A DNA stretch of 34,190 nt, taken from Methanothrix sp. (GTDB lineage Archaea > Halobacteriota > Methanosarcinia > Methanotrichales > Methanotrichaceae). Where the stretch lies: assembly GCA_040770465.1 (NCBI GenBank), contig JAXGJB010000031.1, forward strand, positions 1 to 34,190, read 5' to 3'. Below the pieces are notes generated by a model. It was given only the letters and a program-made list of their open reading frames with translations, ran no database searches and had not been told where the DNA came from. The number at the start of each line of letters is the position of its first letter. Position 1 is the first letter of the stretch. Made by a program: the position numbers and the translations under genes. Shown piece after piece: positions 10,217 through 32,865 of this stretch.

Positions 10217-10230
10217 AGCTGGAAAAGAGC

Positions 10231-10258: not shown

Positions 10259-10328
10259 TCCCGGCTCTGATCCAATCCGGGGCCGAAGGCCTTCTGATCT
10301 ACGTTTAATAGATGAGCGGTGGTGCGAA

Positions 10329-11211: not shown

Positions 11212-11856
11212 ATGAATATAGTACTACTCGGTCCACCAGGATCCGGAAAGGGCACTCAGGCCAAGATGATCGCAGAGAAGTACGGCGTGGTTCACATCTC
11301 CACCGGAGACATCCTTAGAGAGAACGTCAGAAACGGCACCGCTCTGGGTGTGGAGGCCAAGAAGTTCATGGAAGCCGGGAAGCTCGTTCCCGACAGCCTT
11401 CTCATCGACATCATCAAGGACAGGCTGGCCAAAGACGACGTCAAGGGCGGCTGGATGCTGGACGGCTATCCCCGGACGATGCCTCAGGCCGAGGCGATGG
11501 ACAAGATCCTCCCCAATCTTGGCCAGAAGATCGATGTGGTCCTGAACATCGACGTTCCGGATGCAGAGCTCGTCAAGAGGGTCACCGGCCGGCGGATGTG
11601 CAAGTGCGGCGCCACCTATCACGTTCAGTTCAACCCGCCGAAGGTTGCCGGCAAGTGCGATGCCTGCGGCGGCGAGCTATACCAGAGGGCGGACGACACC
11701 GAGGAGACGGTCAAGGAGAGGCTCCAGGCCTATCACGCCCAGACCCAGCCCCTCATCGACTACTACAACAAGAGGGGAATCGTGGCCACGGTGCTCGGCG
11801 TGGGCGATATCAAAGAGATCTTCGGGAAGGTCGCCGAGGCTCTGGATAAGATTTAA
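11212..11856 (+). CDS. adk: Adenylate kinase (bacterial type, Zn-binding LID)
   Basis: GPPGSGKGTQA, HISTGDILR, LDGYPRT, LID with CKC...CDAC, YQRADD. Confidence 0.98.
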   Translation: MNIVLLGPPGSGKGTQAKMIAEKYGVVHISTGDILRENVRNGTALGVEAKKFMEAGKLVPDSLLIDIIKDRLAKDDVKGGWMLDGYPRTMPQAEAMDKILPNLGQKIDVVLNIDVPDAELVKRVTGRRMCKCGATYHVQFNPPKVAGKCDACGGELYQRADDTEETVKERLQAYHAQTQPLIDYYNKRGIVATVLGVGDIKEIFGKVAEALDKI

Positions 11857-11982
11857 AGATCTTTCCAAAACTCTTTTTCAACATTTTTATAAAATCTAAG
11901 TTCTATCTCCATCGAGTCTTCGCCAGCTCTATTGCCAAGCATTTTAAATCCATAAGATCAATACTCCAACTGGTGAGAGGAG

Positions 11983-14742: not shown

Positions 14743-14786
14743 ATCACAAGGAACCTTTTTATTCGCTCATAATATTGCCCTCCCCC

Positions 14787-15455
14787 ATGATACTCGTCTA
14801 TTCCCTCGGCGGCTCCATCCTGGCGGGCCGCGATGCTGGAAGCCTCAAGGAGTACGCCACGGCTTTAAAGAGCCTCGCCCAAGAGCACCAGATCTTCGTG
14901 GTGGTGGGCGGGGGCAAGATCGCCCGAGAGTACATCGAGAAGGCCCGGGCCCTCGCGGCGAGCGAGGCCTTCTGCGACCTCCTCGGGATCGGGGCGACGA
15001 AGCTGAACGCCATGCTCCTGATTGCGGCCCTCGGCAGAGCCGCCGCCCCCGAGCCGGCCGAGAGCTACGCCGGCGCCCTTCTGGCCTCGGCGGGAGGAAA
15101 GATCGTCGTCCTCGGCGGGATGCAGCCGGGCCAGACCACCGACGCCGTCGCGGCCCTCCTCGCCGAGTACGTCCACGCCGACAAATTAATCGTGGCGACC
15201 TCCGTCGACGGCGTCTACTCCGCCGACCCAGGGATCGATCCGAAGGCGAAGAAGTACGAGAAGATGACCCACCAGGACCTGGTCCGCCTCTCGATGGAGA
15301 CGGAGATGAAGGCGGGGTCGCGCTCGCCCGTGGACCCCCTGGCGGCGAAGATCGTCGAGCGAAGCTCCATCCTTACCATCGTCGTCCACGGCGGGGAGGT
15401 CGAAAACCTGAAAAAAGCGGCCGACGGTGGCCATTCGGGAACTGAGATATACTGA
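14787..15455 (+). CDS. pyrH: Uridylate kinase (archaeal)
   Basis: MILVYSLGGS, VVVGGGKIAREY, PGQTTDAVAA, TSVDGVYSADP, VDPLAAKI. Start set at ATG 14787. Confidence 0.96.
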   Translation: MILVYSLGGSILAGRDAGSLKEYATALKSLAQEHQIFVVVGGGKIAREYIEKARALAASEAFCDLLGIGATKLNAMLLIAALGRAAAPEPAESYAGALLASAGGKIVVLGGMQPGQTTDAVAALLAEYVHADKLIVATSVDGVYSADPGIDPKAKKYEKMTHQDLVRLSMETEMKAGSRSPVDPLAAKIVERSSILTIVVHGGEVENLKKAADGGHSGTEIY

Positions 15456-15498
15456 AATCCTGAAGGGTGGGGGGGCTATGCCCCCGGAAACCTTCCAT

Positions 15499-16371
15499 CT
15501 AAAACCGGATCATGCAGCGGATGAGGTCGGTGGCTCCCAACATTCCGCTGGGAACATTGGAATCGAGGACGACGACCTGGCACGCCCCGGACTTCCCCAG
15601 TTCGCTTATGGCGACGTGAAGCGGATCGTCGGCGTTGACGGTGGGATACTCTCTTTCCATCGACTCCTCCACCGGCCGGTCTTCCTTCCCCTCGGCCACG
15701 CCCCTGATCACGTCCTCCATGCTTATGAGCCCCTTCAGATCACCGTTCTTTGCCACCAGGGCTGCCCTGACCTTCGAATCCGAGAGCTTCCGGCAAGCCT
15801 CCAAAAGCGACATTTCAGGGTCTATGGTGACGGCGGGCTTCGCCAGGTTCTTCACCGGGATCTTCGGTATCGAGGCCATCTCTTTTATGTCGAAAATCAG
15901 GCGGTTGGTGGTGTCGTCCCTCCCGGTCACCACACCCTTGATGGAGGTCTTGTTGACGGGGGTCGGCCCTATCTCGATCTCGTCGTCGATGTCAAACTCC
16001 CTGATGTTTCCGATTATCTGGACTATGCCGCTGCACTGGTTCGGCCTCATGACGGTGTAGAAGGTGATCTCGTTGGCGGTGGCCCCCTCAACGGGCGATC
16101 CGTTCCTCATCACCGGGACGTCCACCACCTCGTTGTCGGCGTCGAGGTTGATGGCGTCGTAAGCGGCGGCTATGGCCCGGTAGCCTCCCTTGGGGCCGGG
16201 AACTCCCTCCACCAGGTGGAGGGCCTTCAGAGACTGCATCTGGTTTCTGATGGTGCCGGGGTTTCGGTCGATGATCGAGGCGATCTCCTCGCCCTTTATG
16301 GCCCGGCCCTTCCGGCGTTGTAAATTTATCAGCGCGGTCAGAATCTCCCGCTGTATCTGTGTCAGTTCCAT
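15499..16371 (-). CDS. Archaeal transcriptional regulator with N-terminal wHTH and C-terminal CBS pair
   Basis: IKGEEIA..IDRNPGTIRNQMQSLKALHLVEGVPGPKGGY wHTH motif; C-terminal CBS-like repeats. Confidence 0.88.
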   Translation of the reverse strand: MELTQIQREILTALINLQRRKGRAIKGEEIASIIDRNPGTIRNQMQSLKALHLVEGVPGPKGGYRAIAAAYDAINLDADNEVVDVPVMRNGSPVEGATANEITFYTVMRPNQCSGIVQIIGNIREFDIDDEIEIGPTPVNKTSIKGVVTGRDDTTNRLIFDIKEMASIPKIPVKNLAKPAVTIDPEMSLLEACRKLSDSKVRAALVAKNGDLKGLISMEDVIRGVAEGKEDRPVEESMEREYPTVNADDPLHVAISELGKSGACQVVVLDSNVPSGMLGATDLIRCMIRF

Positions 16372-17555
16372 CCTTGATCGGGCGAATTTTCACGATTATC
16401 GGCTATATATACATGTTGATCTTTCGGCCGAAATCCGCGCGCAGGGCAGATTTTGCTGCCTTGGAAGGAAAGTTTCGCCATTCTTTTCCAGATTCGCTTG
16501 ACCGGCTCCTTCCGGACGTTTCCGACGGCCATGGGAAGGCAGGCGCAAGGATAGACGTCACCCTCGGGGGTGATGTGCATCCAGTTTCTCCCCGCAAAGC
16601 AGCCGAACTCCCGGAAGGCCGCCGGGACGGAGAAGATGCGAGGAGGCGGCGCCCCCGAGACGAACCTGTCGAGGGCCGCGTGATCCTCCTCCGACAGAAC
16701 CGACCCCAACTCTTCAGCCCACCTCCCCACGGGGACCACCTCGAAGAAGGTCAGCTCGTGAGCCCCGGCCGTGCGGGCGAGCCGATGAAACTCTTCGATC
16801 TCGGAGACGTTCTCCCGTCTCAGGACGGCGTAGATGTCCACCAGAAGTCCGGCGTCGAGGGCGTTCTCAACGGCCCTCATGGCGTCGCGGAAGGCGCCGA
16901 TCCTTCCCCTCATCCGGTCGTGCTCCGGCTCGGAGGCAGAGTCGAGGCTGACGTTGACGGCATAGAGCCCCGCATCCTTCAGGTCTCGGGCTAGCTTCGC
17001 CGAAAAACCCGCTCCCGATGTGAACATCGTTGAGATCGCCCGGTCGTCGACGGCCCTGACTAGGTCGGGAAGCTCCCGGTAGGTGGTGGGCTCCCCACCG
17101 TCGAAGATGACGAGGGTGGTTCCCAAATCCAGGACCTGGCCGATGACGTCCTCAACCTCGCCCGGCTCCAGACGGTGGTGGCGGCCCGAGTCTGGGAGGG
17201 CGCAGTGGAGGCAGCGGTTCGGGCACTCCTCGGTGATGGATATCGTCACCTGGTCGGGGGTCCTGATCCCGAAAGACGATTTGAGGTAGCTCTTCACCAG
17301 CCGGTCGAAAGCCCGGCTCGGAATGGGCGGAGACCAGGTTGATAGGATGAGCCCCTCCCCGGCCGCCACCGGGATCTGGCCCTCGGCCGCCCGGAGAGCC
17401 GACCGGACGAAGGGGAGATGGGCCAGGGGGCGCGAAGCCCTCAGCCTGACCCTTCCCTCTTCGACTGACCCGTCGACCCGGAGGAGGGGGCTATTTGCGA
17501 GGGTGTAACTGCCAGCTTCCCTCGCCTCTCTCGCTTCTCCCGCCGCCCTCTTCAC
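16362..17555 (-). CDS. Radical SAM protein with SPASM/Twitch domain
   Basis: CPNRCLHC (CxxxCxxC), [24 protein letters not shown]. Overlaps hisI and the CBS gene (operon-like). Confidence 0.9.
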
Positions 17556-17902
17556 CGGTAGACCTCGTCCGGATCGAAGACCTTCTCTCCCACAACCTCG
17601 CCATCCAGGTCTCGATAGAAGCAGGACCTATAGCCGGTGTGGCAGGCCCCTCCCTCCTGGACCACCTTGAGGAGGATGGCGTCCTGGTCGCAGTCGATCC
17701 TCGCCTCGACGACCTTCTGGAAGTGGCCCGAGGACTCGCCCTTCAGCCAGAGCTTTCCTCTCGACCTCGACCAGTAGTGGGCCTTGCCGGTCTCCAGGGT
17801 CTTCGCCAGAGCCTCCCGGTTCATGTAGGCGAGCATCAGGACCTCGCCGCTTTTGGCGTCCTGGACTATCGCCGGGACGAGGTCGCCCTTGATCTCCAAC
17901 AT
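17552..17902 (-). CDS. hisI: Phosphoribosyl-AMP cyclohydrolase
   Basis: [33 protein letters not shown]. Confidence 0.98.
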
Positions 17903-17950
17903 GCCTCGATGATAGGGCTATATCCTATAAAAGCCGTTTCTGGAAGGACG
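17903..17950. promoter_or_regulatory. Compact divergent promoter region of hisI and nreA
   Basis: 48-bp gap containing back-to-back TATA-like elements (CTATATCCTATAAAA); no SD, so both transcripts are probably leaderless or short-leadered. Confidence 0.5.
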
Positions 17951-19189
17951 ATGACCAGGTGCGTTCGGTGCAAGGGGCGGGGCCTGTGCGGAAGGCCGGT
18001 CTGCCCGATCCTGAAGAGCTTCCGGGTGGCATCGGAGCTTCCGAAGCTGGGAACGACCATCGAGGGGCCGTCGCCGCCGGAGGTCTTCGTGGGGAGGTTC
18101 GGATACCCCCGGGTCTCCGCAGGCCCCCTCCTCCCGGCGGACGAGAGCGGGGGCCTCGATCTCAGTTCTCTCAGCTCCGGCAGTGCCCTCGATCCCCTCC
18201 TCTTCTCCCGGCCTGGTGAGCTGGCTTTGAAGGGCGTCGAGGAGATCGTCGCCCTGAGGTCGTCGATGGTGAGGTCGGCTTCGAAGGTGGAGGTATCGGA
18301 CGCAAAGAACCCGGGGAGGCTCCTGGAGATGGCCCAGGAGATCGCCATGTCCTCGACGCCCGTCGGGACGGAGGTGACCTTCGCCAAGCCCCCGAGGGGC
18401 CGCCTCCGGTTCGACGGGTTCATGATGCCCTCGGGGCCGTCGGGCTCCATCGAGGAGATGGAGATCACATCGAACCCGTCGATTCCCCGGAAGGTCGACG
18501 CCGTCGTCGAGGACTCGGATCTTTTTGCCGCCAACGCCGTCGGCGAGCTTTACGCCTCCGGAGTCGAGATGGACGGGATATCGAGGCTCCTCTCTCTGGG
18601 GCTTCTCGGCAAGAAAAGGAAGCTCGTCCCGACCCGGTGGTCGATCACCGCCTCCGACGACATCGCGGGAAAGCATCTCGCCGCCGCGATCCAAGACCAC
18701 CCGACCGTCGGCGACTACCTCCTCTTCTCGGGCCAGAGGCTCGGAAACCACTTCGAGGTCCTCCTCGCGCCGGGCTCGTTCACCTACGAGCTGATCGAGA
18801 TCTGGCTCCCCCGGTCGGTCTGGTCCGGCGACGAGGCGTGGATCGGCGCCGATCGCGAGGGCCCCGGCCCGAAGAAGGGGTACAGCGACCTCGCCGGAGG
18901 GTACTACGCCGCCCGCCTCGCCCTTCTAGAGCGCCTGGCCGAGATGAGGCGGCAGGCCTCGGCCCTGATCGTCCGGGAGATCACCGAGGAGTACTGGGCG
19001 CCCCTGGGGGTCTGGGTCGTCCGGGAGGCGGCGCGGGCCGCTCTTTCGAGCCCGCCGAAGAGCTTCGAGACTATGGAGGCGGCTCTGGCCGACATGTCAA
19101 CGCGGATTCGGACGCCCGCGCGGGAGTGGCGGCCCCACTCGGAGATGGTGCGGGGGGTGGGGCAGACGACGCTGGCGAGGTTCTTCTGA
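17951..19189 (+). CDS. nreA: Nre family PCNA-interacting DNA repair protein
   Basis: N-terminal CxxCKG.GLCGRxxCP, SPPEVFVGRFGYP, KLVPTRWSITA, GGYYAARL, YWAPLGVWVVRE and C-terminal PIP box QTTLARFF. Confidence 0.92.
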   Translation: MTRCVRCKGRGLCGRPVCPILKSFRVASELPKLGTTIEGPSPPEVFVGRFGYPRVSAGPLLPADESGGLDLSSLSSGSALDPLLFSRPGELALKGVEEIVALRSSMVRSASKVEVSDAKNPGRLLEMAQEIAMSSTPVGTEVTFAKPPRGRLRFDGFMMPSGPSGSIEEMEITSNPSIPRKVDAVVEDSDLFAANAVGELYASGVEMDGISRLLSLGLLGKKRKLVPTRWSITASDDIAGKHLAAAIQDHPTVGDYLLFSGQRLGNHFEVLLAPGSFTYELIEIWLPRSVWSGDEAWIGADREGPGPKKGYSDLAGGYYAARLALLERLAEMRRQASALIVREITEEYWAPLGVWVVREAARAALSSPPKSFETMEAALADMSTRIRTPAREWRPHSEMVRGVGQTTLARFF

Positions 19190-19363
19190 GGGGAGTGGAG
19201 GAGGAAAGCCTTGATGGCAAAAGTTCACCCCCCGCGCCCGGGCGGCGCCGCCCAGCTCCTCCGGCTCTTATTTGGCCGGATCGCATCACAACTCCCGCCT
19301 TCACGGTGGCGTATTGAATTATTGGCGAAAGGTATATGACATTTGCAGGTCACGATGCTTACG

Positions 19364-19531
19364 ATGGCTTCCGTCAAGATTAGGCGAGATTCGGTCAAGA
19401 TTAGGCGAGATTCGGTTCGAGATGTCGATGCAGGCGAATCTGAGGCCGAGGAGCTGGACAGGCTCGCCCGAGAGACGAGGGAGAAGGGCATTTCGTGGAA
19501 GAGCCTCAAGGCAGAACTCAGATTAAACTAA
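19364..19531 (+). pseudogene. Small degenerate ORF, possible antitoxin remnant, at the island boundary
   Basis: MASVKIRRDSVKIRRDSVRDVDAGESEAEELDRLARETREKGISWKSLKAELRLN. TATA-like GTATATG about 30 bp upstream. Tail resembles the '(I/V)SWEELKxEL' ends of archaeal antitoxins (recalled). Contains a 21-bp duplication. Confidence 0.35.
19373..19414 (+). repeat. Perfect 21-bp tandem duplication
   Basis: GTCAAGATTAGGCGAGATTCG x2. Confidence 0.95.
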
Positions 19532-19554
19532 AAATCATTAGAAGGTAATGAAAA

Positions 19555-20625
19555 GTGTTTAAACTCAAGAAAATTATGGAAATTTCTGCAGAAGTTATCT
19601 CGGACGGATGCCTTGAAAATGGGGCGATTGTGGCAGCCAATACATTCAAGGATTATTATCCAGCTGATGCTAAACATTATTTCTATGTTTGGCCAAGGGA
19701 TGGTTCGTATGTATCTATTGCAGCTGACATCTTGGGACTAAATGATATTCAAGAAAATTTTTTTAATTGGTGTCTTAATAGAGCAGAAGGATTCTGGGAT
19801 TCAGGATTATTTTTTGAAAAGTATTATGTAAATGGACCAAAAGCCCTTGATAGATTCCAGCCTGACCAAACAGGATCTGTCCTATTCGCCTTATGGCATC
19901 ATTATAAGGACAACCTTGAAGATGCTCTGAAGTTCGAAGATCTGGTTAAAAAGGGCGCTGACGGGATCTCAAGCATTTGGAATGGAGAGTGCTTCGATCT
20001 AGTAGCTAATGATCTCTGGGAGGAGAGGCTGGCTTTCCCAGACCTTGCAGAGAACTTCACGTACTCCCTCGCAGCCTGCATAAAAGGACTGGATTGCGCA
20101 AGCGAAATGATCCCTGAAGATGCAAATAAGTGGAGAGAAGTGGCAAAAGAGATGAGATCGAAACTCGACACTCACTTTGTAGACGGCCATTTTGTTCGAT
20201 CTTTCGGCAAACTGATTGATCCGCGGATAGATGCCTCGGTTTTAGGCCTTGTCTACCCCTTTGAGATCTATGAAGCGGATGACCCCCGAATAATATCCAC
20301 CGTTACGGAAATTGAAAGATGCCTCGTCATTGGTGGCGGGGTGCATCGCTATCAACATGACGAGTATGATGGCTGGATGTTCGAAAGGATGCACCGAAGG
20401 AAGGGGGGTGGCAGCTGGCCGGTCCTCAACTTCTGGCTCTCGATATACTGGGCTAAAAGGGGTGAAACTGGGAGGGCGAGGTATTTTTATGATTGGGTTC
20501 TTGAAAGGTCAGATGGATATTTTCCAGAGCAGATCTTCAATAACGAAGTACAGGTCTCAGTATCACCATTACTATGGTCTCACGCAATGTTCATCATCGC
20601 CTCCAGTTTTTTGGGGCATTGTTGA
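19555..20625 (+). CDS. Glycoside hydrolase family 15 (glucoamylase/trehalase-like), catalytic domain only
   Basis: YVWPRDG, QPDQTG, DLWEE (acid), DASVLGL, RYQHDEY, FPEQI (base), SPLLWSHAMF; no signal peptide. Confidence 0.9.
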   Translation: MFKLKKIMEISAEVISDGCLENGAIVAANTFKDYYPADAKHYFYVWPRDGSYVSIAADILGLNDIQENFFNWCLNRAEGFWDSGLFFEKYYVNGPKALDRFQPDQTGSVLFALWHHYKDNLEDALKFEDLVKKGADGISSIWNGECFDLVANDLWEERLAFPDLAENFTYSLAACIKGLDCASEMIPEDANKWREVAKEMRSKLDTHFVDGHFVRSFGKLIDPRIDASVLGLVYPFEIYEADDPRIISTVTEIERCLVIGGGVHRYQHDEYDGWMFERMHRRKGGGSWPVLNFWLSIYWAKRGETGRARYFYDWVLERSDGYFPEQIFNNEVQVSVSPLLWSHAMFIIASSFLGHC

Positions 20626-20826
20626 AGTCGAGTTGTTTAATGCCGAAATATGTCGAATAATTAGGTACTTAGAAAAGAATCATAATACTTTTCGGTATTA
20701 TAAAAACTATTGAATTCTCATTAAATGCTAATCAGAGGACGTTACGCTAATCTCTTACCTAAACTTTGTAGCATAGCGATATTAAAGACCCAACTTAAGC
20801 GGGGAACAATAATTATTTATATGTTC

Positions 20827-20840
20827 ATGTTCATGAACAT
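20827..20840. promoter_or_regulatory. 14-bp perfect palindrome (candidate operator) between the TATA box and SD of the WD40::GH13 gene
   Basis: ATGTTCATGAACAT, immediately after TTATTTATAT and before GGAGG (20845-20849). Confidence 0.45.
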
Positions 20841-20855
20841 CCATGGAGGTTTCCG

Positions 20856-23642
20856 TTGATGAGGCAGCCATATCCCGTTCCCCCTGGGTTCGAGCTTAAA
20901 CGCAGTTTCCAAGGTCATAAGAATATTATAAACCATATAGAGTGGTTCAAAGATAGTTTAACACTTATTTCAACATCAGACGATTGTAGCATCAGACGTT
21001 GGGATGTGAAGAGCGACACTGAACTTCAGATGATAGAGGAACTCTCAAAAGTCAAATCCGCCGCAATAGTACCAGGAGGCAAACGAATTATCTCTGGATT
21101 GTCCGATCGAATGCTCAGAATATGGGATTTGGATAGCGGCAGACAAGAGGGGGGAGATATGATTGGTCACACAGGATGGGTTAATTCGGTGGCATTGCTG
21201 CAAGATGGCAAGAGGGCCATCTCTGCATCCGGTGACAATACCCTCAAAGTATGGGATATAACAAGAGAGCTAAATAAAGATAATAGACCATGTATAAAAA
21301 CACTTAATGGCCATGTAGGTTATGTTAACTCTGTAATTGTATTGCCGCACAACATTGCCTTATCTGCTTCGACTGATAAAACTGTGAGGTTTTGGGATCT
21401 TGATAAATATAAAGAAATTCGCGATCCTATAAAAAGCAATGCTCCAGTTTACTCATTAGCATTTTCTCCAGAAAGATGTATAATTGCCATCGGGTCCAGA
21501 AGTAATGTAATCAAAATATTTGATTGTAATACTGAAAAAATTTTCGAGCTATATTGTGCTAGTACATCAGAAGTTAGTTCGGTCTCGTTTTCGCATGGTG
21601 GTCAGTTGCTTGCCGCTAAATGTGGCGGCGACATAGTCCATTTGTGGAGGTGCGACAATTGGAAAGAAGTGGGATCGATAACCAACTCAAATTCTGATGC
21701 GAAATTCACACTATTCTCACATTTGGCTTTTCATCCAAAATACCCATTTTTAGCAACTCTAAGTAACCGTGATGAGGATTTCCGCATCTGCGTGTGGGAA
21801 TATGATAGCAATAAGATACTTGGTGGTATATCGAGTGGGAAACCTATCTCTCAGCTCCAGAATGTAGATGAACTAACATCGATTTCTGAGCTTGAGTTCG
21901 AGCCGAAAGGAGATGTCCACCCCTCTCCGAGCGATTGGAGAGACATTATTATATATTTTCTTTTGATAGATCGATTCGACAACGGAAGATCGGACATTCA
22001 CCCTTTCGTATCAGCCGATTGTTCGAAGGGATCCCATCCAGATCCCCAAAAATACAATCTGGATTCTGAACAGGGAAAGAAGTTCCAGGGTGGAAACCTC
22101 AGAGGCGTTACCAGGAGGCTGGACTATATAAAAAATCTCGGATGCAATGCAATATGGATCAGCCCAGTCTTCAAGAATCGGAAGGAGAAAGAAGACTATC
22201 ACGGTTATGGCATCCAAGATTTTCTCTCCGTGGATCCTCGCTTTGGAAACTTGGAAGAGCTAAAGCAGTTAGTACGGGAGGCCCATGAAAAGGGGATCTA
22301 TGTAATACTAGATGTAATAATCAATCACACAGGTGACAACTGGGCTTATCTAGGAGGGGGGGGGCTAAATAAAAAAAATATGATTTGGGGGGATGATAGC
22401 GATGATTGGCCTTTCAGGATCAACTGTCCCTACAGTTTTGGATACTGGAGACGTTTAGAATCCGCAACGACATTCGGCAAAGATGACGCTGTCTGGCCAA
22501 GAGAGCTTCAAAACCCTCATTACTATAAAAGGAGGGGAAAAATTCGGGATTTCGAAAAGGCAGGGCGGGAAGAGATCGAACAGGGTGACTTTTGTGGCTA
22601 CAAAAAACTGGATCTCGACAACCCCGAAGTGATGGATTGTCTCATAAATATTTATAAGTATTGGATCGCTGTTACCGATGTGGACGGCTTCCGTTTAGAC
22701 ACAGCCAAGCATTTAGGACCCGGTCCAACCGCACAGTTCTGCAACGCAATCAAAGAGTATTGTCGGCGGATTGGGAAGCACAACTTCTTGATCTTTGGGG
22801 AAGTTTCTGGGAGTGACGAGAATATAAGGAACTTTCTATGCCGGAATGTCCAGATATCTGGAACCGAAGATTGCCTTTTCTCGCTGGAGGCGGCACTGGA
22901 CTTTCCTCTCAGCGAGGCCTTAGAAAATGTATTCAAGAAGGGGTATGACCTTTCGCATCTGAGGGTGAGATACTCACTTTTGGAGGAATACTATCGCGAC
23001 CGTTGCTCCCCTGGCTCCCATCTGGTTACCTTCCTGGACAACCACGATCACACTGAGAGGTTCATTTATGGATTGGAATCCCAGGAGTTGGCCATGGCCG
23101 CCCTTGGATATTTGATCACCTCGCCAGGAATACCATCCCTCTACTACGGAACAGAACAAGGGTTTGATGGTCATGGAGATAAAGATCATTATGTAAGAGA
23201 GTGCATGTTCGGTGGAAACTGGGGGCCGTTTGGCACGAAAGAAAAGCACTTCTTTGATGAACGCAGCGAACTATATCAACATATTAAATCTATTATAAAA
23301 ATTCGGATGGCGCAGCCAGCTCTGCGATATGGACGAATGCGCTTCAGGGAGGTATCTGAAGACGGCATCTCGTTTGAATATCCTTATACAGTCAACCGAA
23401 TCCCCCTTATCGTCTTCTCTCGGCTGCTTGATAAAGATGAGCTCTTGGTGGCGATAAACCTGTCCTCTGTGGAGAAGAAGGTTTGGGTAGAGGTGGAGGA
23501 TGGGCTATATCATTCTGGGGGAGTGATGGTCAGCTTATTGGATGAGGGATTAAAACTCAAAGTTGAAAAAAAATCATTCCGTTACTGTATCGAACTCGCC
23601 ATCAAACCCTATAAATTATTAATATTGAAGAATGCATTCTGA
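20856..23642 (+). CDS. WD40 beta-propeller fused to a GH13 alpha-amylase-family catalytic domain
   Basis: Seven WD blades (ending RWD, IWD, VWD, FWD, IFD, LWR, VWE). Then IYFLLIDRF, GGNLRG, YHGYG, DVIINH, GFRLDTAKH, GEV, FLDNHD and GIPSLYYGTEQG. Single uninterrupted 928-aa ORF. Confidence 0.92.
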   Translation: MMRQPYPVPPGFELKRSFQGHKNIINHIEWFKDSLTLISTSDDCSIRRWDVKSDTELQMIEELSKVKSAAIVPGGKRIISGLSDRMLRIWDLDSGRQEGGDMIGHTGWVNSVALLQDGKRAISASGDNTLKVWDITRELNKDNRPCIKTLNGHVGYVNSVIVLPHNIALSASTDKTVRFWDLDKYKEIRDPIKSNAPVYSLAFSPERCIIAIGSRSNVIKIFDCNTEKIFELYCASTSEVSSVSFSHGGQLLAAKCGGDIVHLWRCDNWKEVGSITNSNSDAKFTLFSHLAFHPKYPFLATLSNRDEDFRICVWEYDSNKILGGISSGKPISQLQNVDELTSISELEFEPKGDVHPSPSDWRDIIIYFLLIDRFDNGRSDIHPFVSADCSKGSHPDPQKYNLDSEQGKKFQGGNLRGVTRRLDYIKNLGCNAIWISPVFKNRKEKEDYHGYGIQDFLSVDPRFGNLEELKQLVREAHEKGIYVILDVIINHTGDNWAYLGGGGLNKKNMIWGDDSDDWPFRINCPYSFGYWRRLESATTFGKDDAVWPRELQNPHYYKRRGKIRDFEKAGREEIEQGDFCGYKKLDLDNPEVMDCLINIYKYWIAVTDVDGFRLDTAKHLGPGPTAQFCNAIKEYCRRIGKHNFLIFGEVSGSDENIRNFLCRNVQISGTEDCLFSLEAALDFPLSEALENVFKKGYDLSHLRVRYSLLEEYYRDRCSPGSHLVTFLDNHDHTERFIYGLESQELAMAALGYLITSPGIPSLYYGTEQGFDGHGDKDHYVRECMFGGNWGPFGTKEKHFFDERSELYQHIKSIIKIRMAQPALRYGRMRFREVSEDGISFEYPYTVNRIPLIVFSRLLDKDELLVAINLSSVEKKVWVEVEDGLYHSGGVMVSLLDEGLKLKVEKKSFRYCIELAIKPYKLLILKNAF

Positions 23643-23706
23643 TGAAGAGACACGCATGATCTTGATTTCAGACCTATATGCATAATTGCTAAAGGGGTTT
23701 ACTAGA

Positions 23707-25188
23707 ATGCCGGAAATAGATGATACGACTGCGGTAAATAACAGCGTTATAGAGCGTTATTGCGAGGCCTTCCGCCTAATGCGGGTGAATAATTTAGACG
23801 ACGCTGCCACGAAGCTAAGGGAACTTAAAAAGTATGATAGAGAGTACCTCAACGCTCATCGATACCTGGGCATAATTTATATGCAACAGGGAGAGTTTAC
23901 TGATGCTATAAATGAGTTTGTTTTTATATTAAACAAGGACCAAAAAAAATTTCGCTCTTTAAAAGATCGTTGCAAAGATTCCTTCGATAAAGAGACTGAT
24001 CCCGATGGCCATATGGCATGGGTCCATCACGACCTAGGTAAGGCCCATCTGGAGTTGGGAGAATACAAAGATGCCATAAAATATATAAAAGAATCTATAA
24101 AAATCTTCGAAGCCGAACCCAAAAACTGGTTCATAAACGATCTAGGCTGGGCTTACTACAAATGCGGTAGGAACCATGAAGACCGTGGCGAAAAAGACGA
24201 GGCCCGCAAAAAATACAAAGAGGCTATAGAACAGTATAAGAAAGCAATCAAACTAGATCCCAAGGACGCTCATTCTCATTTCTTCCTCGGCCTCGCCTTG
24301 ATCAAGAACGGGCAGCTTAGTGATGCCGAAGAGGAGCTGAATGAAGCGAGCGACTGCTTTAAAGGGATACTTAGAAACGAAAAATTGAACCCCACAAATA
24401 AAGAAGCCTGGATCCAAGTTGAATTGAAGCTCGCCTCCACTAAGAACAACTTAGGCAGGATTCAGATGGAAAAGGGAAGTTACGACGATGCTAAGGATCT
24501 ATTTCTGGATGCATTAAAAATATGCTTGAATAAAGAGTGCCAAGAATATATCGAAAAACTCACGCCCTGGGGGAAGAGAAAGGAGCAGAGGATCATCGCC
24601 GCACTTCATACCAATATGGGATTATTATATTATAAACGGGGATCGTTAGATGAGGCACGAAAGGAGTATATGGAAGCCTTAACGATGGCAGAGCTGCCGG
24701 AGACCTATAATAATTTGGCAGCTATATCCAACAAAGAGGGTGCAAAGGAGAATGCTGAGTTTCATCTCAATAACGCTCTCCGCGTTAATCCCCGATTTAA
24801 GCCGGCATTAACCAACCTGGAAAAACTTACGAGAGGGACTACCAACTGGTGTGACTGGTGGTTTGAACCCATCCAGTCCGAATCATCTGGGAAGTTTGCT
24901 TCCCTTAAATGCAAATATCACCGCAAATGGATCTTAGGATCTTTGCTGGTATTCACCCTGATTCTATTGGTTGCCGATATGCTGATCGCCTCCTTTTCAG
25001 GAATGGTCACAATCACAAGCTTTGAAACGGGACCTAGCCTAAGGGATAAGATGCTTTTAGCTTCTCTGATATTCTTCCTACTGGTCCACCCCCGGATCGA
25101 AGCCTTTGCTCTCGGAGAGGTGAAGTTTAACATGGCTACAGAGGTTGCTTCATCATCCCTCCGAAGCGAAGGATCAACCTCTGAATGA
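23707..25188 (+). CDS. TPR-repeat protein with C-terminal transmembrane helices
   Basis: Multiple TPRs (HDLGKAHLELGEYKDAI, AIKLDPKDAHSHFFLG, NNLGRIQMEKG, TYNNLA), WCDWWF, then two hydrophobic segments. Start set at ATG 23707 (alternative TTG 23686). Confidence 0.88.
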   Translation: MPEIDDTTAVNNSVIERYCEAFRLMRVNNLDDAATKLRELKKYDREYLNAHRYLGIIYMQQGEFTDAINEFVFILNKDQKKFRSLKDRCKDSFDKETDPDGHMAWVHHDLGKAHLELGEYKDAIKYIKESIKIFEAEPKNWFINDLGWAYYKCGRNHEDRGEKDEARKKYKEAIEQYKKAIKLDPKDAHSHFFLGLALIKNGQLSDAEEELNEASDCFKGILRNEKLNPTNKEAWIQVELKLASTKNNLGRIQMEKGSYDDAKDLFLDALKICLNKECQEYIEKLTPWGKRKEQRIIAALHTNMGLLYYKRGSLDEARKEYMEALTMAELPETYNNLAAISNKEGAKENAEFHLNNALRVNPRFKPALTNLEKLTRGTTNWCDWWFEPIQSESSGKFASLKCKYHRKWILGSLLVFTLILLVADMLIASFSGMVTITSFETGPSLRDKMLLASLIFFLLVHPRIEAFALGEVKFNMATEVASSSLRSEGSTSE

Positions 25189-25454
25189 TCCGTTATGTCC
25201 CAGTTATCCATTTTAAGTAGATCCCTATTAGTCCCATCTCTAAAGACCGTTTCTTGAAACTGTCTGGCGGGTCTTCGATACGAATGAAATCGTTTGGGTT
25301 TTCCTAACTTTGGCCTTATTTTTTTATGTAGGGTGCTAGTTGGAAAAACATCATTTTTCATCTCTTTATATCGCTCCCCCTTCACCAAAAAGCGTATATC
25401 TCAGCGCCACTATAATAATGAGTTCGACCGATAAAAAAGAGGTGACAGATTATC

Positions 25455-26039
25455 ATGAGAAAGAGAAGATACCCATCCATATTCGACGCCTTCGAGAGCA
25501 TCTTCCGGGGCTTTCCCTTCGAGGAGGAACGCGAGGAGGGGATTTATCGAGACCCCTTCGAGGAGCTGATCAGGAGGTTCCAGGAGGGGATCCCCGAGGA
25601 CATGAAGGAGCTGGTCCGGGAGGAGGAGACCCCCGCGGGGACGGCCCGCCGCTACGGCCCCTTCGTCTACGGCTTCAGCTACACCGCAGAGCCGGGAAAG
25701 GAGCCGACCTTCCGGGAGTTCGGAAACATCCGGCCCAGCCGCGGCGGGATCGAGCCGAGCGCCGGCCGCGAGCCGCTGGTCGACGTGATGGAGGACGGCG
25801 ACCTCTACAAGATCTTCGCGGAGCTTCCTGGCGTCGAGAAGGAGTCGATCAAGCTCGACTCGACCGAGCGGACTGTACGGATCGAGACGACCGGCGAGAA
25901 GAAGTTCGCTAAATTGATCAGCCTCGACGATGAGGTCGACCCCGACAGCGCCAAAGCGTCGTACAAGAACGGCGTCCTCTCCGTGGAGCTGGAGAAGAAG
26001 GTGAAGGCCGAGAAGGGGAAGGAGATCAAGATCGAGTAA
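25455..26039 (+). CDS. hsp20: Archaeal small heat-shock protein (Hsp20/alpha-crystallin)
   Basis: GPFVYGFS..FREFGN, REPLVDV, AELPGVEKESI, ASYKNGVL and C-terminal IKIE; SD GAGGTGA. Confidence 0.95.
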   Translation: MRKRRYPSIFDAFESIFRGFPFEEEREEGIYRDPFEELIRRFQEGIPEDMKELVREEETPAGTARRYGPFVYGFSYTAEPGKEPTFREFGNIRPSRGGIEPSAGREPLVDVMEDGDLYKIFAELPGVEKESIKLDSTERTVRIETTGEKKFAKLISLDDEVDPDSAKASYKNGVLSVELEKKVKAEKGKEIKIE

Positions 26040-26065
26040 ATGATCAAGTAGATGATCGAGTAGGT
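26030..26065 (+). repeat. Three imperfect 12-bp tandem copies of the hsp20 3' end
   Basis: GATCGAGTAAAT / GATCAAGTAGAT / GATCGAGTAGGT. Confidence 0.75.
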
Positions 26066-26108
26066 CTATCTCGGATAGATTTATACTCTGATAAAATCTA
26101 TTTTTTAA

Positions 26109-26421
26109 TGCGGGCGCGCCGGCGGTTGCCTGCAACACCACAGGCCAGGTGACCCAGAGACCTTCTCCTCCCCGCAAGTCTGCAAGCGACAGTTATCCGC
26201 GGTAGGTCTGCTCCCTTCCGGGCCTGAACCGGTCCCCGCAGTTGAGATGACCAGACCTGCCCTCCGGCAGGCCCAACCACCAATGCTGTCCCCGCAGGGC
26301 GGAGAATCACAGTCGGCAACTGGACTGAACCTGCAGCACACGCAGTCGTCCACCAGCTTCGTCCCCCGCATATCGGCGATCTCGGGTTACAGGTGACGCC
26401 GAGCCACCCGGACTAGCCCGC
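26109..26421 (-). ncRNA. ffs: Archaeal signal recognition particle (7S/SRP) RNA
   Basis: 5' Alu domain GCGGGCTAGTCCGGGTGGCTCGGCGTCACCTGTAACCCG; helix-8 motif CAGGCCCGGAAGGGAGCAG (26226-26208); 5'/3' ends pair (GCGGGC/GCCCGC); about 313 nt; TTTAT box about 25-30 bp upstream. Confidence 0.95.
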
Positions 26422-26473
26422 GAATATCAGAGTCCTCTGGGGGAACATAAACCTAACGCAAGATTTGACCCAA

Positions 26474-26503
26474 GATGACGATGACGATGATGATGATGAT
26501 GAC
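26474..26503 (+). repeat. (GAY)10 trinucleotide tract encoding the Met-rich uORF MTMTMMMMMTAAR* (26475-26516)
   Basis: GATGACGATGACGATGATGATGATGATGAC read directly. Confidence 0.85.
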
Positions 26504-26618
26504 TGCTGCGAGATGAAGCTGAGAAGACCGAGATGAGGATGAAAGCTGCGATTTGAACCGAGATTCGATCTCGATTTGTGATGCTGATTTTGCGATTGAA
26601 CCGAGGAGGTGCGAGATT

Positions 26619-26861
26619 ATGGAAGAGATGATAGGGTTTGTAATGGGAAACAAGCAGAGGATAAAGGTCCTGGAGATCATCGAGTCGAAGGGGCCCCAGC
26701 CAGCCGAGAAGATCGCCAAGTTCGGCCGTCTCACCGCCCCCGTCGTGGCGCGGGCCCTGGAGGAGGTCGCTGGAAAGGGGCTATTGAAGGAGAAGGACGG
26801 GGTCTGGAACTTCACCGACCTGGGGATCGAGCTGTCGAAAGAGCTGAAGAAGAGGGCGTGA
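26619..26861 (+). CDS. Small winged-helix DNA-binding protein
   Basis: 80 aa; SD GAGGAGGTG; wHTH pattern RIKVLEII...AEKIAK...VARALEEVAGKGLL...WNFTDLG. Confidence 0.8.
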   Translation: MEEMIGFVMGNKQRIKVLEIIESKGPQPAEKIAKFGRLTAPVVARALEEVAGKGLLKEKDGVWNFTDLGIELSKELKKRA

Positions 26862-26865
26862 TCGG

Positions 26866-27378
26866 ATGGAGCTAGCCGAGGCGATTCGAAGGCGGAGGAG
26901 CATACGAAAGTACCTCCCCCGGAAGATCGAGAACGATAAGCTCGACCGGGTCCTGGAGGCGGGAAGGCTCGCCCCCTCAGCGAAGAACCTCCAGGAGTGG
27001 AAGTTCATCGTGGTCCGGGACGACGGCAGGAGGAAGCGGCTCGCCGAGGCGGCGAAGGGCCAGACCTTCGTCGGCGAGGCTCCGGTGGTGATCGCAGCCT
27101 GCGCCACGGTGACCGATTACGTCATGACCTGCGGCCAGCTCACATACCCCATCGACCTCGCCATAGCCGTCGAGCACATGGTCCTCGCGGCGGCGGCAGA
27201 GGGTCTGGGGACCTGCTGGATCGGGGCATTCTACGAGGAGGAGGTGAAGAAGGTCCTGAACATACCCCCCGAGATCAGGGTCGTGGCCCTCCTGCCGATG
27301 GGCTACCCCGTCGAGTCGCCGGCCCCAAGGCCCCGGAAGGAGATGGACGAGATCGTCGCCTTCGAGACCTGGGGATGA
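26866..27378 (+). CDS. Nitroreductase family protein
   Basis: [38 protein letters not shown]. Confidence 0.95.
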
Positions 27379-27446
27379 GTTGGGCGGAATCGAAGTCTTG
27401 TGGTCATAAGACAAGGAAAGACGATGGAATCGGCGAAGGTGTGAAA

Positions 27447-27863
27447 GTGGCCGGAAAGGTCGTTAAAACCGACGAGGAGTGGAAGAATCTCCTCACTCGG
27501 GAGGAGTACATCGTCACCAGGAGGAGGGGGACGGAGCCCCCCTTCTCCGGCAAGTACTACAACTTCAAGGGAGAGGGGATTTATCGCTGCGTCGCATGCG
27601 GAAATGACCTATTCTCCTCGGAGATGAAGTTCGACTCGGGCTCTGGCTGGCCCAGCTTCTGGGCTCCGATCTCCAAGGAGAGCGTCGACGAGAGGGAAGA
27701 CAGAAGCTACGGAATGACCAGAACTGAGGTGGTCTGTGCGAGGTGCGACTCCCACCTAGGCCACGTCTTCGAGGACGGGCCGCCCCCGACGGGGCTCCGG
27801 TACTGCATCAACTCGGCAGCTCTGAAGTTCGTCCCCCAGGATGAGCTAGATTCCGAGGTATGA
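27447..27863 (+). CDS. msrB: Peptide-methionine (R)-S-oxide reductase
   Basis: [45 protein letters not shown]. Start uncertain (GTG 27447 or 27441, or ATG 27375). Confidence 0.96.
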
Positions 27864-27891
27864 AGAGATCAGAGTTTGAAGGCGGATTCGT

Positions 27892-28767
27892 TTGGCAGAG
27901 CACATACTGGAGATGGCCGGAGCCCTGGTGAGGGTGAGGGACGGAGAGATCGAGGTCCTCTCAGACCCCAAGGTGAAATGGTGCCCCCTGCGAAGCGGCC
28001 TCTACGGGCACGAGGCCGAGTCCAGGAAGACCGTCGAGTCGGTCCTGCGAGGCCACATCGAAGAGCTGGGGATGTACGGTCCAGATCGCGTCCTGGAGCT
28101 CTCCGAGCGGCCGGTCAGCTTCGGAGCCTCCGAGATGATCGCCGACGGGATGAAGGGTGGGCTCGTCGACGCGGCCGTCGTCGTCTGCGAGGGGGCGGGG
28201 ACGGTCGTCGCCGCGAGGCCCGAGGTCGTGGCCGCCCTCGGCGCCCACATGACCGGCCTCGTCAGGACCGAGCCGATCGAGGAGATACAGTCCGGCCTCC
28301 GGGAGCGCGGATGCATCCTCCTCGACGACCGGTGCACCATCGATCAGGTGGAGGGTTACCGGAGGGCCCTTGCCGCCGGATACCAGCGGATCGTCGTCAC
28401 CATCACTGGAAAGAGGGCCTTCGAGGCCGAGGAGATCAGAAAGCTGGCTTCAGCCTCGGCTTGTGGACAGGCGGCCGAGGAACCGGTGATATTCGCGGTC
28501 CACAACCTCGACGTCGCCGAGGATCAGGCGGAGGTCCTGGCCGAAACTTGCGACGTCGTCTGGGGTTGCGCCTCGCGGCCGGTCCGTGACGTTGTGGGAC
28601 GGCGGGCGAAGCTCCAGATCGGGATCTCGATACCCGTCTACGCCCTCACCGATCGGGGAAAGCGGCTGGTACTAAACCGGGCTCAGCATTTTGACGAGAG
28701 CCTGGTGATGCACAGGGCGACGCTCCCTTACGGGCCGGAAGAGAAGCTGCCAACGCTTCTGGACTGA
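27892..28767 (+). CDS. Methanogenesis marker 8 (DUF2099) family protein
   Basis: HILEMAG..VRVRDG..P.VKWCPL, VSFGASE, DAAVVVCEGAGTV, M.GLVRTEPI, CAS motifs. Confidence 0.78.
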   Translation: MAEHILEMAGALVRVRDGEIEVLSDPKVKWCPLRSGLYGHEAESRKTVESVLRGHIEELGMYGPDRVLELSERPVSFGASEMIADGMKGGLVDAAVVVCEGAGTVVAARPEVVAALGAHMTGLVRTEPIEEIQSGLRERGCILLDDRCTIDQVEGYRRALAAGYQRIVVTITGKRAFEAEEIRKLASASACGQAAEEPVIFAVHNLDVAEDQAEVLAETCDVVWGCASRPVRDVVGRRAKLQIGISIPVYALTDRGKRLVLNRAQHFDESLVMHRATLPYGPEEKLPTLLD

Positions 28768-28812
28768 ATATCAAAAAGAATCAGAACATCGGACGGGTGG
28801 GGGGTTGGAGGT

Positions 28813-29889
28813 CTACCCGATCCTCTCGACCTTCAGCCCCCCGTTGTCGACTTTTGTAGATATCGCGATCTTCAGCCCCATCGGCTCCAGGATCTCGGCC
28901 ATCTCCGCCTCGTTCCGACTGGTGACGACGGCGATCGACGGCCCCACGGAGCTCATCCCCACGAACTCGAGCCCCGCCTCCCGGAGGCGGCTCATGTGCT
29001 CGTAGATCTCAAAGCCATGGTGCTCGACCTCGGCCCGCTTCGAGCCCCGGAACTCGATCTCCCAGATGACGTCCCCGATCTTTTTGAGGTCGCCCCGCTC
29101 CAGGGCGGGGATCAGGTCCATGAGGATGAAGTAGGCTTTCAGCTCCCTGTCCTGGTAGTCGAGGGTTCGGGCCCTGTTCATCAGGAGGTCGAACTCCTCC
29201 CTCCCCGACGAGGAGACGGTCGTCTCGGGGATAATGACGAAGACGTTCTTTCCCTCGGCGAAGGGGTGGTGGTAGGCGAGAGAGAGCTCGTCGCCGGTCA
29301 CCGCCATCCCGCCGTAGGTGACGGCGGCGGGGCCGACCCCGGTCTCAAATCCCAGGGTGACCCGGCCGTCCTCGGTCTCCTCGACGTAGTTGTTCCCGAT
29401 CAACAGCCTGATCTCGTCTTTTGTAAGGTTGGAGCCGACGGCCTCGTTCATGGCGGTGGCGAGGGCCACCAGGACCGAGCCGGTGGAGCCGAGGCCGACG
29501 TGCTTTTGCTCGTGATCCCGGACCTTTATCTTGAAGCCGCCGGAGTAGCCGGTCGTCTCCTTGAAGACCTCGACGAAATGGCGGACGATTGGCTCTCTCG
29601 AATAGTCGACGACCAAATCTTTGGGCGTGCACTCAACCTCGGCGAAGCAATAGATCTGGAGGGCGAAGCCGACCCCGCCGCCGCCGGGCCTGTTGGGCGC
29701 AAACCGGTTCATGTCCAGGACGGTGAGGTGGATCCTCCCCGGGGTTGTGACCCTCACCTTTTCCTTGATCGGCTCAAGCTTCCCGTCCTTTTTGATCCCC
29801 AGAGTGTTGATCTTCTCGCCGGGAGAGAAGGGGCTGAACTCGTACTCCACCAGGTCCAGGTCCCCGCCCCGGATCTTCATCGTCGGCAT
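28813..29889 (-). CDS. GHMP-superfamily protein, beta-RFAP synthase (MptG)-like
   Basis: TPGRIHL..LD, GGVGF, HVGLGS.G, GMSSVGP. Confidence 0.8.
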   Translation of the reverse strand: MPTMKIRGGDLDLVEYEFSPFSPGEKINTLGIKKDGKLEPIKEKVRVTTPGRIHLTVLDMNRFAPNRPGGGGVGFALQIYCFAEVECTPKDLVVDYSREPIVRHFVEVFKETTGYSGGFKIKVRDHEQKHVGLGSTGSVLVALATAMNEAVGSNLTKDEIRLLIGNNYVEETEDGRVTLGFETGVGPAAVTYGGMAVTGDELSLAYHHPFAEGKNVFVIIPETTVSSSGREEFDLLMNRARTLDYQDRELKAYFILMDLIPALERGDLKKIGDVIWEIEFRGSKRAEVEHHGFEIYEHMSRLREAGLEFVGMSSVGPSIAVVTSRNEAEMAEILEPMGLKIAISTKVDNGGLKVERIG

Positions 29890-30050
29890 CTTTCACCACC
29901 ATCCGAAATGAAATAGCATGGTCCTCTCTGGCTATATCTCGTTGCCGGAGATCTCGCCTTGCGCCGGGGCGAGAGCGTGGGAGCTTCCACCCCGGCGACC
30001 GCCGATCCGAGAGGCGAGGCTACAGGCGAGGTGACAAGCAAGGCGACAGG

Positions 30051-31481: not shown

Positions 31482-31572
31482 CGGATCTCCTCAGAATCAC
31501 AAAGAAGGTGATCGCGAGCATGAGTATCATCGAGGCCAGAAGGGCCAGGTACGGCGTCGGCGCGAGGAACAT
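31474..31572 (-). CDS. 32-aa single-TM protein translationally coupled to the SSS transporter
   Basis: MFLAPTPYLALLASMILMLAITFFVILRRSDD; GGAGG upstream; stop overlaps the transporter start. Confidence 0.7.
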   Translation of the reverse strand: MFLAPTPYLALLASMILMLAITFFVILRRSDD

Positions 31573-31742
31573 CAGGTCCGCCTCCGCGTCGGTGAATCGT
31601 GAGCGTTTGAGTGCGTCGGTGCAAGGTCTCTTGGATTCAAATCGATCTCTCCTCCAATCATGTACGATAATATACAATGATGGGCAGTGGAGGGCGATTT
31701 TGGTTGAAAAGGGTTTCGCTGACCGCGCTATTCAGCACGTAT

Positions 31743-32792: not shown

Positions 32793-32865
32793 TGTTAATG
32801 TCCCCTTATCAACGCCACCTTTAAACCTTTAAATAGCGTAGGACCAAACTACGAGATTTAGTGGA

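Follow-up and report, generated by a model that had tools for sequence, protein, structure and literature searches.

WD40 propellers are protein-interaction scaffolds. Prokaryotic WD40 propellers such as those of PkwA (5YZV) and the Nostoc WD-40 repeat protein 2YMU, the best solved relatives of the propeller treated here, have the seven-bladed fold and typically stand at the C-terminus of kinase, STAND or TIR proteins. Glycoside hydrolase family 13 (GH13) is represented in anaerobes by a family of stand-alone cytoplasmic enzymes of ~571 amino acid residues (aa). Other cytoplasmic GH13 enzymes, neopullulanase, TVAII and cyclomaltodextrinase (1J0H, 1BVZ, 1H3G), carry an N-terminal module, a small β-sandwich that shapes the active site of the dimer. 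Here, we analyze a contig of 34,190 bp from Methanothrix sp. (JAXGJB010000031.1 of assembly GCA_040770465.1, hereafter the window), in which a single gene, at 20856..23642, encodes a WD40 propeller followed by a GH13 α-amylase. Unlike the PkwA-type proteins, this one has its propeller at the N-terminus, joined to a metabolic hydrolase, and the kinase, NTPase and TIR domains are absent. In place of the β-sandwich of the neopullulanase type, it bears a 300-residue propeller on what looks like a flexible tether. The domain fusion is genuine and rare, is confined to one lineage and lies within a mobile cassette of putative glycogen hydrolases.

The WD40–GH13 Fusion Protein

A first-pass annotation, made from the letters of the window and their open reading frames, had described an uninterrupted 928-aa frame with seven blades, a short linker and an intact GH13 domain with all its catalytic motifs and no signal peptide. 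The frame, the Pfam matches, the alignments and the structural models all agree with that description. The gene is a single open frame on the + strand, with 928 codons when read from TTG 20856. ATG 20859 is the likelier start, judging from the sequence upstream: a GGAGG lies ahead of it, in a 230-bp spacer of 33% GC that also holds a TATA-like element, and the 927-aa product is recorded without any change on three contigs. Neither a signal peptide nor a membrane segment is found in the protein, in which no 19-residue stretch reaches a Kyte-Doolittle value of 1.6. Residue numbers below follow the 928-aa reading.

The N-terminal part matches PF00400 (WD40; E 5e-38, 128.3 bits against a cut-off of 27) and many propeller families over residues ~15–320. 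Seven repeat ends can be read in the sequence, at WD49, WD90, WD133, WD180, FD~222, WR264 and WE314. The AlphaFold2 model of residues 1–345, with strands from 12 to 316, has a mean predicted local distance difference test score (pLDDT) of 89.8 and a predicted template modeling score (pTM) of 0.87. Its best Foldseek matches, LIS1 (TMt 0.85), G-beta, PkwA (0.90) and WDR5 (0.91), are all seven-bladed WD40 proteins. A profile score above threshold goes together with a closed, seven-bladed propeller in the model. The closest sequence match in the PDB is 2YMU (E 5e-80).

Database relatives of the propeller are about 26–40% identical overall, with at most 52% over 70 residues. A propeller-only search among proteins of 184–587 aa gave no match above ~32% identity, save a fragment of the same gene, and a scan of JGI metagenome contigs found 589 relatives, with a best segment at 40%. 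The nearest relatives are mostly C-terminal propellers of long, multidomain, multi-propeller proteins, many of them with NB-ARC, NACHT, AAA_16, kinase or TIR domains; among 20 that were scanned, the N-terminal part is NB-ARC-like in 4, TIR-like in 3 and a KGGVGR ATPase in 1. The first-pass annotation had likened the ends of the propeller, in strings at residues 8–21, 262–269, 290–302 and 311–317, to the WD40 module of WD40-Roc-TIR signaling proteins. The likeness holds insofar as many relatives carry NB-ARC, NACHT or TIR domains, but the identity is generic, and specific Roc-TIR orthology was not seen. By these comparisons, the propeller is a generic prokaryotic WD40 domain. No NB-ARC, NACHT, Roc or TIR domain appears in the fusion protein among the best 25 of 38 Pfam rows and the best 25 of 40 NCBIfam rows. 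There is also no room for one, since residues 12–316 are propeller and residues 333–928 are a whole amylase. Judged by its domains, then, the fusion is not a STAND, Roc or TIR signaling protein.

The amylase part matches PF00128 (Alpha-amylase; E 1.1e-53, 183.6 bits against a cut-off of 22) over residues 370–784. The catalytic residues are H491 in conserved region I (DVIINH), D615 (GFRLD), E649 (FGEV) and D731 (NHD), all in columns that are invariant in 11 aligned members. Residues 340–928 are modeled mostly above pLDDT 90 in the full-length model, with the A (TIM-barrel), B and C domains, and the best Foldseek matches are 5A2C and 4E2O (TMt 0.85–0.86). Profile, catalytic residues and predicted domain layout, which are all the features that were compared, place this half in GH13. 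It is more than the domain that the first-pass annotation had named: residues 333–928 align end to end with the stand-alone family of anaerobes and correspond to the entire ancestral protein, with the conserved regions and the catalytic triad in common. Identity is 68–72% to members of the Methanothrix soehngenii type and 47–54% to the rest (Methanolobus, Brocadia/Kuenenia, Zixibacteria). In contrast to the stand-alone enzymes, the fused copy has no start codon of its own and has two private insertions, at residues 385–393 (9 residues) and 504–518 (15 residues). The position of the ancestral start corresponds to Q333/L334, and neither the linker nor the frame beyond it contains an ATG, GTG or TTG until residue ~369; with the ancestral start gone, the amylase can be produced only as part of the fusion.

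The best solved relatives of this half are the GH13_45 α-amylases of Anoxybacillus and Geobacillus (5A2A-C, 4E2O; sequence E 7e-51). The identity in the fold alignment is only ~25–27%, and the fusion has a domain-B insert of about 65 residues. Two features mark subfamily 45 according to the abstract of PMC11301243: conserved region V reads LPDlx, and helix α3 has a Trp-Trp pair. The fusion instead has KLDLD in region V and KYW in helix α3. The neopullulanase-type enzymes are also among the sequence and fold matches.

Between the two halves stands a linker of about 20 residues without a counterpart in the stand-alone amylases. Residues ~317–340 score below pLDDT 50–55 in both the full-length and the propeller-only model, so the linker is read as a flexible tether, predicted to be disordered. 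The full-length model (pTM 0.69) has no confident contact or packing between the propeller and the GH13 half. It also scores residues 1–53 below 50; this is an alignment artefact, since the propeller-only model refolds the same stretch above 90.

The first-pass annotation had gone on to suggest that a signaling or immune sensor had been swapped onto a glucan hydrolase, giving a ligand-gated amylase. A disordered linker and two halves without confident contact give no indication of a gate. In a broader form, this proposal would make the propeller a sensor from a STAND, Roc or TIR signaling protein that gates the amylase on binding of a ligand or partner. Many of the nearest propellers do form the C-terminal part of proteins with NB-ARC, NACHT, TIR or kinase domains, and the insertion hotspot described below carries conflict-type cargo in sister genomes. 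The likeness, however, is generic and of low identity, the NTPase and TIR domains are absent, the linker is disordered, the full-length model has no confident contact between the halves, and the stand-alone members of the family work without any such module. We regard a sensor of this kind as improbable.

The Fusion Is Not an Assembly Chimera

Logan contigs of four sequencing runs were aligned to window positions 19000–26000. Runs X2, X3 and X4 come from the same study as the probable source sample, so their independence of it is not complete. In X2, a single contig of 5964 bases spans 19447–25410 with one difference and no gaps; in X3, a single contig of 5937 bases spans 19474–25410 without a difference; and in X4, a contig covering 20705–21921 bridges the WD40/GH13 junction. 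Run X5, from another study and another year, is represented by 8 listed pieces; those at 21358–21826 and 21897–22055 are letter-identical to the window, and none bridges the junction. Pieces of the fusion are thus the same to the letter in a 2017 run and in 2024 runs of different studies. The sole difference within the gene across the four runs is 21987 A>C in X2, which changes AGA to CGA and is synonymous. Sequence data across the junction, a check that the first-pass annotation had called for in case of a chimera, therefore speak for the gene as it stands: unbranched contigs of X2, X3 and X4 run through it. The fusion is genuine.

An assembly or binning artefact that joined two unrelated genes is hardly credible. 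It could appeal to the 3.44% contamination of the source metagenome-assembled genome (MAG) and to the two versions of the locus that the MAG holds, on contigs C26 and C31. Yet contigs without branches cross the junction in three other samples, the composition is even across it, and the island in which the gene lies has host DNA at either border, in synteny with five related genomes.

Distribution of the Architecture

The first-pass annotation had held that an architecture already common would refute its reading. No second WD40–GH13 protein came to light in protein, metagenome, plasmid or phage searches. These searches list their best matches only, and a very diverged fusion could have escaped them. 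When the full-length protein was compared with 5.8 billion clustered proteins, 1750 of the 8000 scored candidates matched, and the best 120 are all GH13-only proteins of 553–609 aa that cover 62–64% of the query. In an exhaustive HMMER search of 1.84 billion representatives (257,003 matches), the best 150 comprise 138 propeller-only and 12 amylase-only proteins and none with both. A search centered on the junction (residues 100–520) listed 120 proteins, and all 118 new ones were WD40-only. Among 113 loci compared, WD40 and GH13 occur together only at the window's own locus. None of the 785 matching plasmid records or the 55 matching phage records covers 80% of the fusion query or holds the fusion. 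Stand-alone GH13 orthologues occur in 9 of 15 genomes of the same genus (42–51% identity, fragmentary in 2), and none is fused. Every WD40+GH13 match found is a copy or a fragment of this gene. Besides the fusion, the host genome has a single further GH13 match and a single further WD40 gene.

The literature search, which covered titles, the starts of abstracts and passages around search terms, met no description of a WD40–GH13 protein. The words "amylase", "glycos" and "hydrolase" do not occur in the main text of a survey of prokaryotic WD40 proteins (PMC5587647), whose supplementary dataset could list such an architecture. As far as these searches reach, WD40–GH13 is a novel domain architecture made of two known folds and confined to one lineage. 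A one-off without expression had also been named as a refutation; the one-off part of this is borne out, in that a single lineage carries the fusion. No RNA run is among the 16 runs listed for the gene.

An Island of Foreign Composition

The fusion gene is the second of three genes in a low-GC island between nre and hsp20. Island GC is 41–46%, against 60–67% in the flanks. The GC content at third codon positions (GC3) is 0.88 in nre and hsp20, and 0.44, 0.37, 0.50 and 0.49 in the GH15 gene, the propeller part, the GH13 part and the TPR gene of the island. In codon usage, the four coding parts of the island resemble one another (cosine 0.84–0.93) far more than they do the host (0.42–0.65). Related genomes align with the window up to 19193 and again from 25371–25382, and one of them, G007, continues up to 19525. 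The X2 and X3 contigs break at 19447 and 19474, respectively, and both at 25410; loose ends lie at 19185, 19525 and 25381. In a quick tree of 44 rows, for which a motif filter dropped 7 of the 17 added loci, the GH13 part falls in a clade with the M. soehngenii-type members and genome G050 (100% SH-aLRT support), apart from the orthologues of its own genus. A foreign origin is supported by the GC3 and codon usage, which are unlike the host's, and by this position of the GH13 clade.

The gap between nre and hsp20 differs among genomes in size, from about 424 bp in G012 through 1.2 kb in G001 and 2.3 kb in G015 to 2.6 kb in contig C26, from the assembly that also holds the window. It differs also in cargo: an MNT-HEPN pair in G015 and G007, a ParE toxin gene in G007 and a VWA-like gene in C26. 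Because of this variation, the gap is taken as a strain-variable hotspot, and the segment from 19526 to 25381 as inserted foreign DNA. The read data agree with this, both in the loose ends and in the lower depth over the island. The assembly itself holds two versions of the whole locus. Window segments 14239–19193 and 25382–31727 correspond to positions 689–5579 and 8206–14582 of the C26 locus (L129), with 86.6% and 93.7% identity; one version has the island, and the other has a different insert of 2.6 kb, so the MAG is a mixture from two related strains or species.

The three island genes include no integrase or transposase by Pfam; a repeat search at the borders found only short, chance-like families and no flanking direct repeat; and the window has only two tRNA genes, at 2662–2819, neither of them near the island. 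A scan of 19400–25500 with bacterial-type models, which are unsuited to archaea, found 9 promoter and 2 terminator sites, where shuffled sequence would give 12.3 and 5.6.

Two further observations concern the hotspot. The segment ahead of ParE in G007 is still present in the window, but the island stands in the place of the toxin gene (L130, 7910–9425; L131, from G015, 7596–8561). In G007, a second nre 3′ end of 295 bases follows the insert (L130, 9482–9776, 83% identical to window 18910–19204); its sequence suggests that a target or attachment site was duplicated.

Companion Genes and Their Recurrence

The gene upstream of the fusion encodes a short GH15 (glucoamylase-like) protein (PF00723, E 3.7e-19, 69.4 bits against a cut-off of 22), which covers only positions 272–608 of the 616 in TIGR01577. 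Full-length archaeal GH15 enzymes have an N-terminal β-sandwich domain and a catalytic (α/α)6 domain, of which the window's protein has the catalytic barrel only. Orthologues of the same short form, 63–77% identical, occur in 8 of the 392 genomes of the class, with one further copy broken; since the short form recurs in this way, the gene is not one truncated by the island border. The gene downstream of the fusion encodes a TPR protein whose C-terminal part has two membrane helices (residues ~414–445 and 456–476); its likely start, from the sequence, is ATG 23707.

The neighborhood recurs elsewhere in the family. In G050, the gene directly after a stand-alone GH13 (67% identity) encodes a TPR protein (42%) that likewise has two membrane helices, and in G003, a TPR protein (42%) precedes a short GH15 (77% identical to the window's). 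In G073, a GH13 gene, a gene of 298 aa and a short GH15 gene adjoin genes for glycogen debranching enzyme (GDE_N/GDE_C) and GH57; the 298-aa product has no Pfam match and no likeness to the TPR protein. More distant GH13 homologues (41–51% identity) have no GH15, TPR or WD40 neighbor in the loci compared. In G004, an open reading frame upstream of GH13 was considered as a GH15 and rejected, being an eRF1-like gene.

Lower-GC patches hold these GH13, short GH15 or TPR genes in G073 (L138, 6000–11000, 36–44%), G003 (L139, 8000–10000, 44–46%) and G004 (L141, ~6000–7000, 47%), in surroundings of 52–63% GC. Such patches elsewhere in Methanotrichaceae suggest that the module moves between genomes. 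The host has a glycogen cluster of its own on contig C36, with GT5, GH57 and GDE genes. Storage of cytosolic glycogen by Methanothrix is stated in passages of PMC12525153. As far as the literature searched extends, GH13 with a short GH15 and a membrane TPR protein is an undescribed, candidate glycogen-mobilizing module of Methanotrichaceae.

The cassette could also be conflict or defense cargo, for instance an effector that, upon infection, would use up glucan or modify a glycan, the WD40 and TPR parts being the sensors. The company in the hotspot lends itself to this idea: MNT-HEPN pairs, ParE and the VWA-like gene of C26. A GlgB-like candidate model of PADLOC-DB 2.0 also matches the GH13 part at 195 bits, but this is plain α-amylase homology. 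The cassette as a whole matches no defense system in that database. The other PADLOC matches are a weak HEAT-ARM_XIII (E 1.3e-10) and PDC-M71B (E 2.6e-4); no defense-system model goes beyond E 2.6e-4 for the TPR and GH15 proteins, and the GH15 protein is unmatched. Moreover, the same genes stand among glycogen enzymes in G073, and the fusion is in 0 of the 55 phage and 0 of the 785 plasmid records that matched. A role in defense is therefore very improbable.

Proposed Role of the Cassette

We propose that a complete propeller has become tethered, in one lineage, by a flexible linker to a complete cytoplasmic amylase of an otherwise stand-alone family, and that the cassette holding it, in the order short GH15, fusion and membrane-anchored TPR protein, landed at the nre/hsp20 hotspot of a Methanothrix-type archaeon of anaerobic digesters. 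The GH13 enzyme would cut internal α-1,4 bonds, and the GH15 would release glucose, from storage glycogen or maltodextrin. Together with the TPR protein, they would form a cytoplasmic module for degrading glycogen or maltodextrin, organized at the membrane. We infer such a module from the gene neighborhoods, the glycogen cluster of the host and the storage of glycogen in Methanothrix. The propeller most likely serves as a protein-docking platform that would place the amylase at, or couple it to, the TPR membrane protein, proteins of the glycogen granule or a regulator; in favor of docking, WD40 propellers are interaction scaffolds, and the model matches LIS1, G-beta and WDR5. A small-ligand gate is less likely than such a platform. 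That partner binding at the propeller face relocates or switches the amylase, with the co-encoded TPR protein or a glycogen-granule protein as candidates, is an improbable extension. The role of the propeller is the weakest step of the explanation. Direct evidence carries the fusion, its integrity and rarity, the island and the recurring neighborhood; the substrate and any propeller role we infer. Taken together, a fusion in a foreign cassette that breaks down the cell's own glycogen or maltodextrin, with the propeller for docking or placement, seems to us somewhat better than an even prospect.

Several observations weigh against this proposal. The TPR protein is paired with a GH13 in G050 and with a GH15 in G003 without any WD40 domain, so the cassette does not need the propeller. 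There is no second, independent fusion that would point to selection on the propeller. Sequencing depth over the island is about a third to a half of that over the flanks, so the island belongs to a subpopulation. The protein cluster of the fusion has four members, two of which are frameshifted. One is identical through residue 451 and changes frame at about 452 (window ~22205–22215). Another member, beginning at residue 512, is probably from the same 4498-base contig and would be the downstream piece of that broken copy. The copy on a Logan contig of 2076 bases has lost one C from the CCCC run at ~21921–21924 (residue 357) and meets a stop 13 codons later, just past the propeller. These frameshifts may be errors of thin, low-coverage assemblies, or real decay.

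The same observations can be turned into an account of a young fusion, neutral or mildly harmful, in which a deletion in the donor happened to unite the amylase gene with a WD40 gene upstream of it; the propeller would be a passenger on a working amylase, and the gene would be decaying in part of the population. This account has some way to go before it becomes likely, but it deserves to be taken seriously. It agrees with the confinement to one lineage (0 of 150 best representatives, 0 of 120 + 118 listed proteins and no foreign locus among 113), with the frameshifted copies on record, with the disordered linker and with the long terminal branch of the GH13 part in the quick tree (0.48, against 0.08–0.22 in its sisters). 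It fits less well with a 927-aa frame that is intact on three contigs, with pieces that are identical to the letter in 2017 and 2024 runs of different studies, with an in-gene variant (21987 A>C) that is synonymous, and with seven blades that all fold in the model at pLDDT near 90. The frameshifts, too, stand in contigs of 2076 and 4498 bases with low coverage, where they may be assembly errors.

Two textbook folds are paired here in a way that is absent from the searched collections and literature. Methanothrix is the main acetate-consuming (acetoclastic) methanogen of digesters. If the propeller is functional, the protein would be a natural case of a protein-interaction scaffold attached to a glycoside hydrolase and would offer a handle on how Methanothrix controls its glycogen reserve. 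Were the propeller regulatory, this would be the first carbohydrate-active enzyme under WD40 control, and the mobile cassette that carries it would rewire how a key methanogen uses its glycogen. If the fusion is neutral, it would be a dated snapshot of the birth of a domain architecture in a strain-variable island.

Feature Coordinates and Minor Observations

Table 1. Coordinates of the island, its genes and the parts of the fusion gene, in window positions.
Feature	Position	Strand	Basis or remark
Low-GC island, ~5.9 kb, three genes, between nre and hsp20	19526..25381		GC, GC3, synteny breaks, contig ends
Variable segment left of the island, 56% GC	19194..19525	+	Common to G007, where the ParE toxin gene follows
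Short GH15 (glucoamylase-like), catalytic barrel only, 356 aa	19555..20625	+	PF00723, TIGR01577
TATA-like TTTATATG and GGAGG	20816–20823 and 20845–20849	+	Ahead of the fusion start; putative promoter
WD40–GH13 fusion gene	20856..23642	+	928 aa from TTG 20856; 927 aa from ATG 20859
Seven-bladed WD40 propeller, residues 12–316	20889..21803	+	Pfam, model (pLDDT 89.8), Foldseek
Linker, residues 317–332	21804..21851	+	Alignment (no counterpart in stand-alone amylases), low pLDDT
Complete GH13 α-amylase, residues 333–928	21852..23639	+	Alignment, model, Foldseek
D615 codon, catalytic nucleophile (GFRLD)	22698..22700	+	Alignment
E649 codon, acid/base (FGEV)	22800..22802	+	Alignment
D731 codon, transition-state stabilizer (NHD)	23046..23048	+	Alignment
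TPR protein, two C-terminal membrane helices	23686..25188	+	Pfam TPR families, hydropathy

Beside the CCCC run at the start of the GH13 part, a hairpin at 21923–21942 (+) has an 8-bp stem (CTCTCC..GGAGAG) followed by an A/T-rich run; it is probably due to chance, since the scan found fewer such sites than the shuffles. An oligo-T run at 25319–26, about 130 nt past the TPR stop, is a possible archaeal terminator of the cassette.

Outside the island, window 12019–14742 (+) encodes a protein of 907 aa with NB-ARC and TPR domains (STAND-type). The TPR region is built of tandem ~120-bp units; between strains, these can be aligned at many offsets, so their copy number probably varies.

A second low-GC patch, of 39–44% GC, lies at 31743–33840 and carries a radical SAM/SPASM gene resembling peptide maturases (31743–32792, −). 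A link between this gene and the radical SAM gene upstream of the G050 GH13 was rejected, the two being only 22% identical. At the same place, contig C26 (L129, 15250–17676) instead encodes a WD40 protein of 808 aa; this is the one WD40 gene that the genome has besides the fusion.

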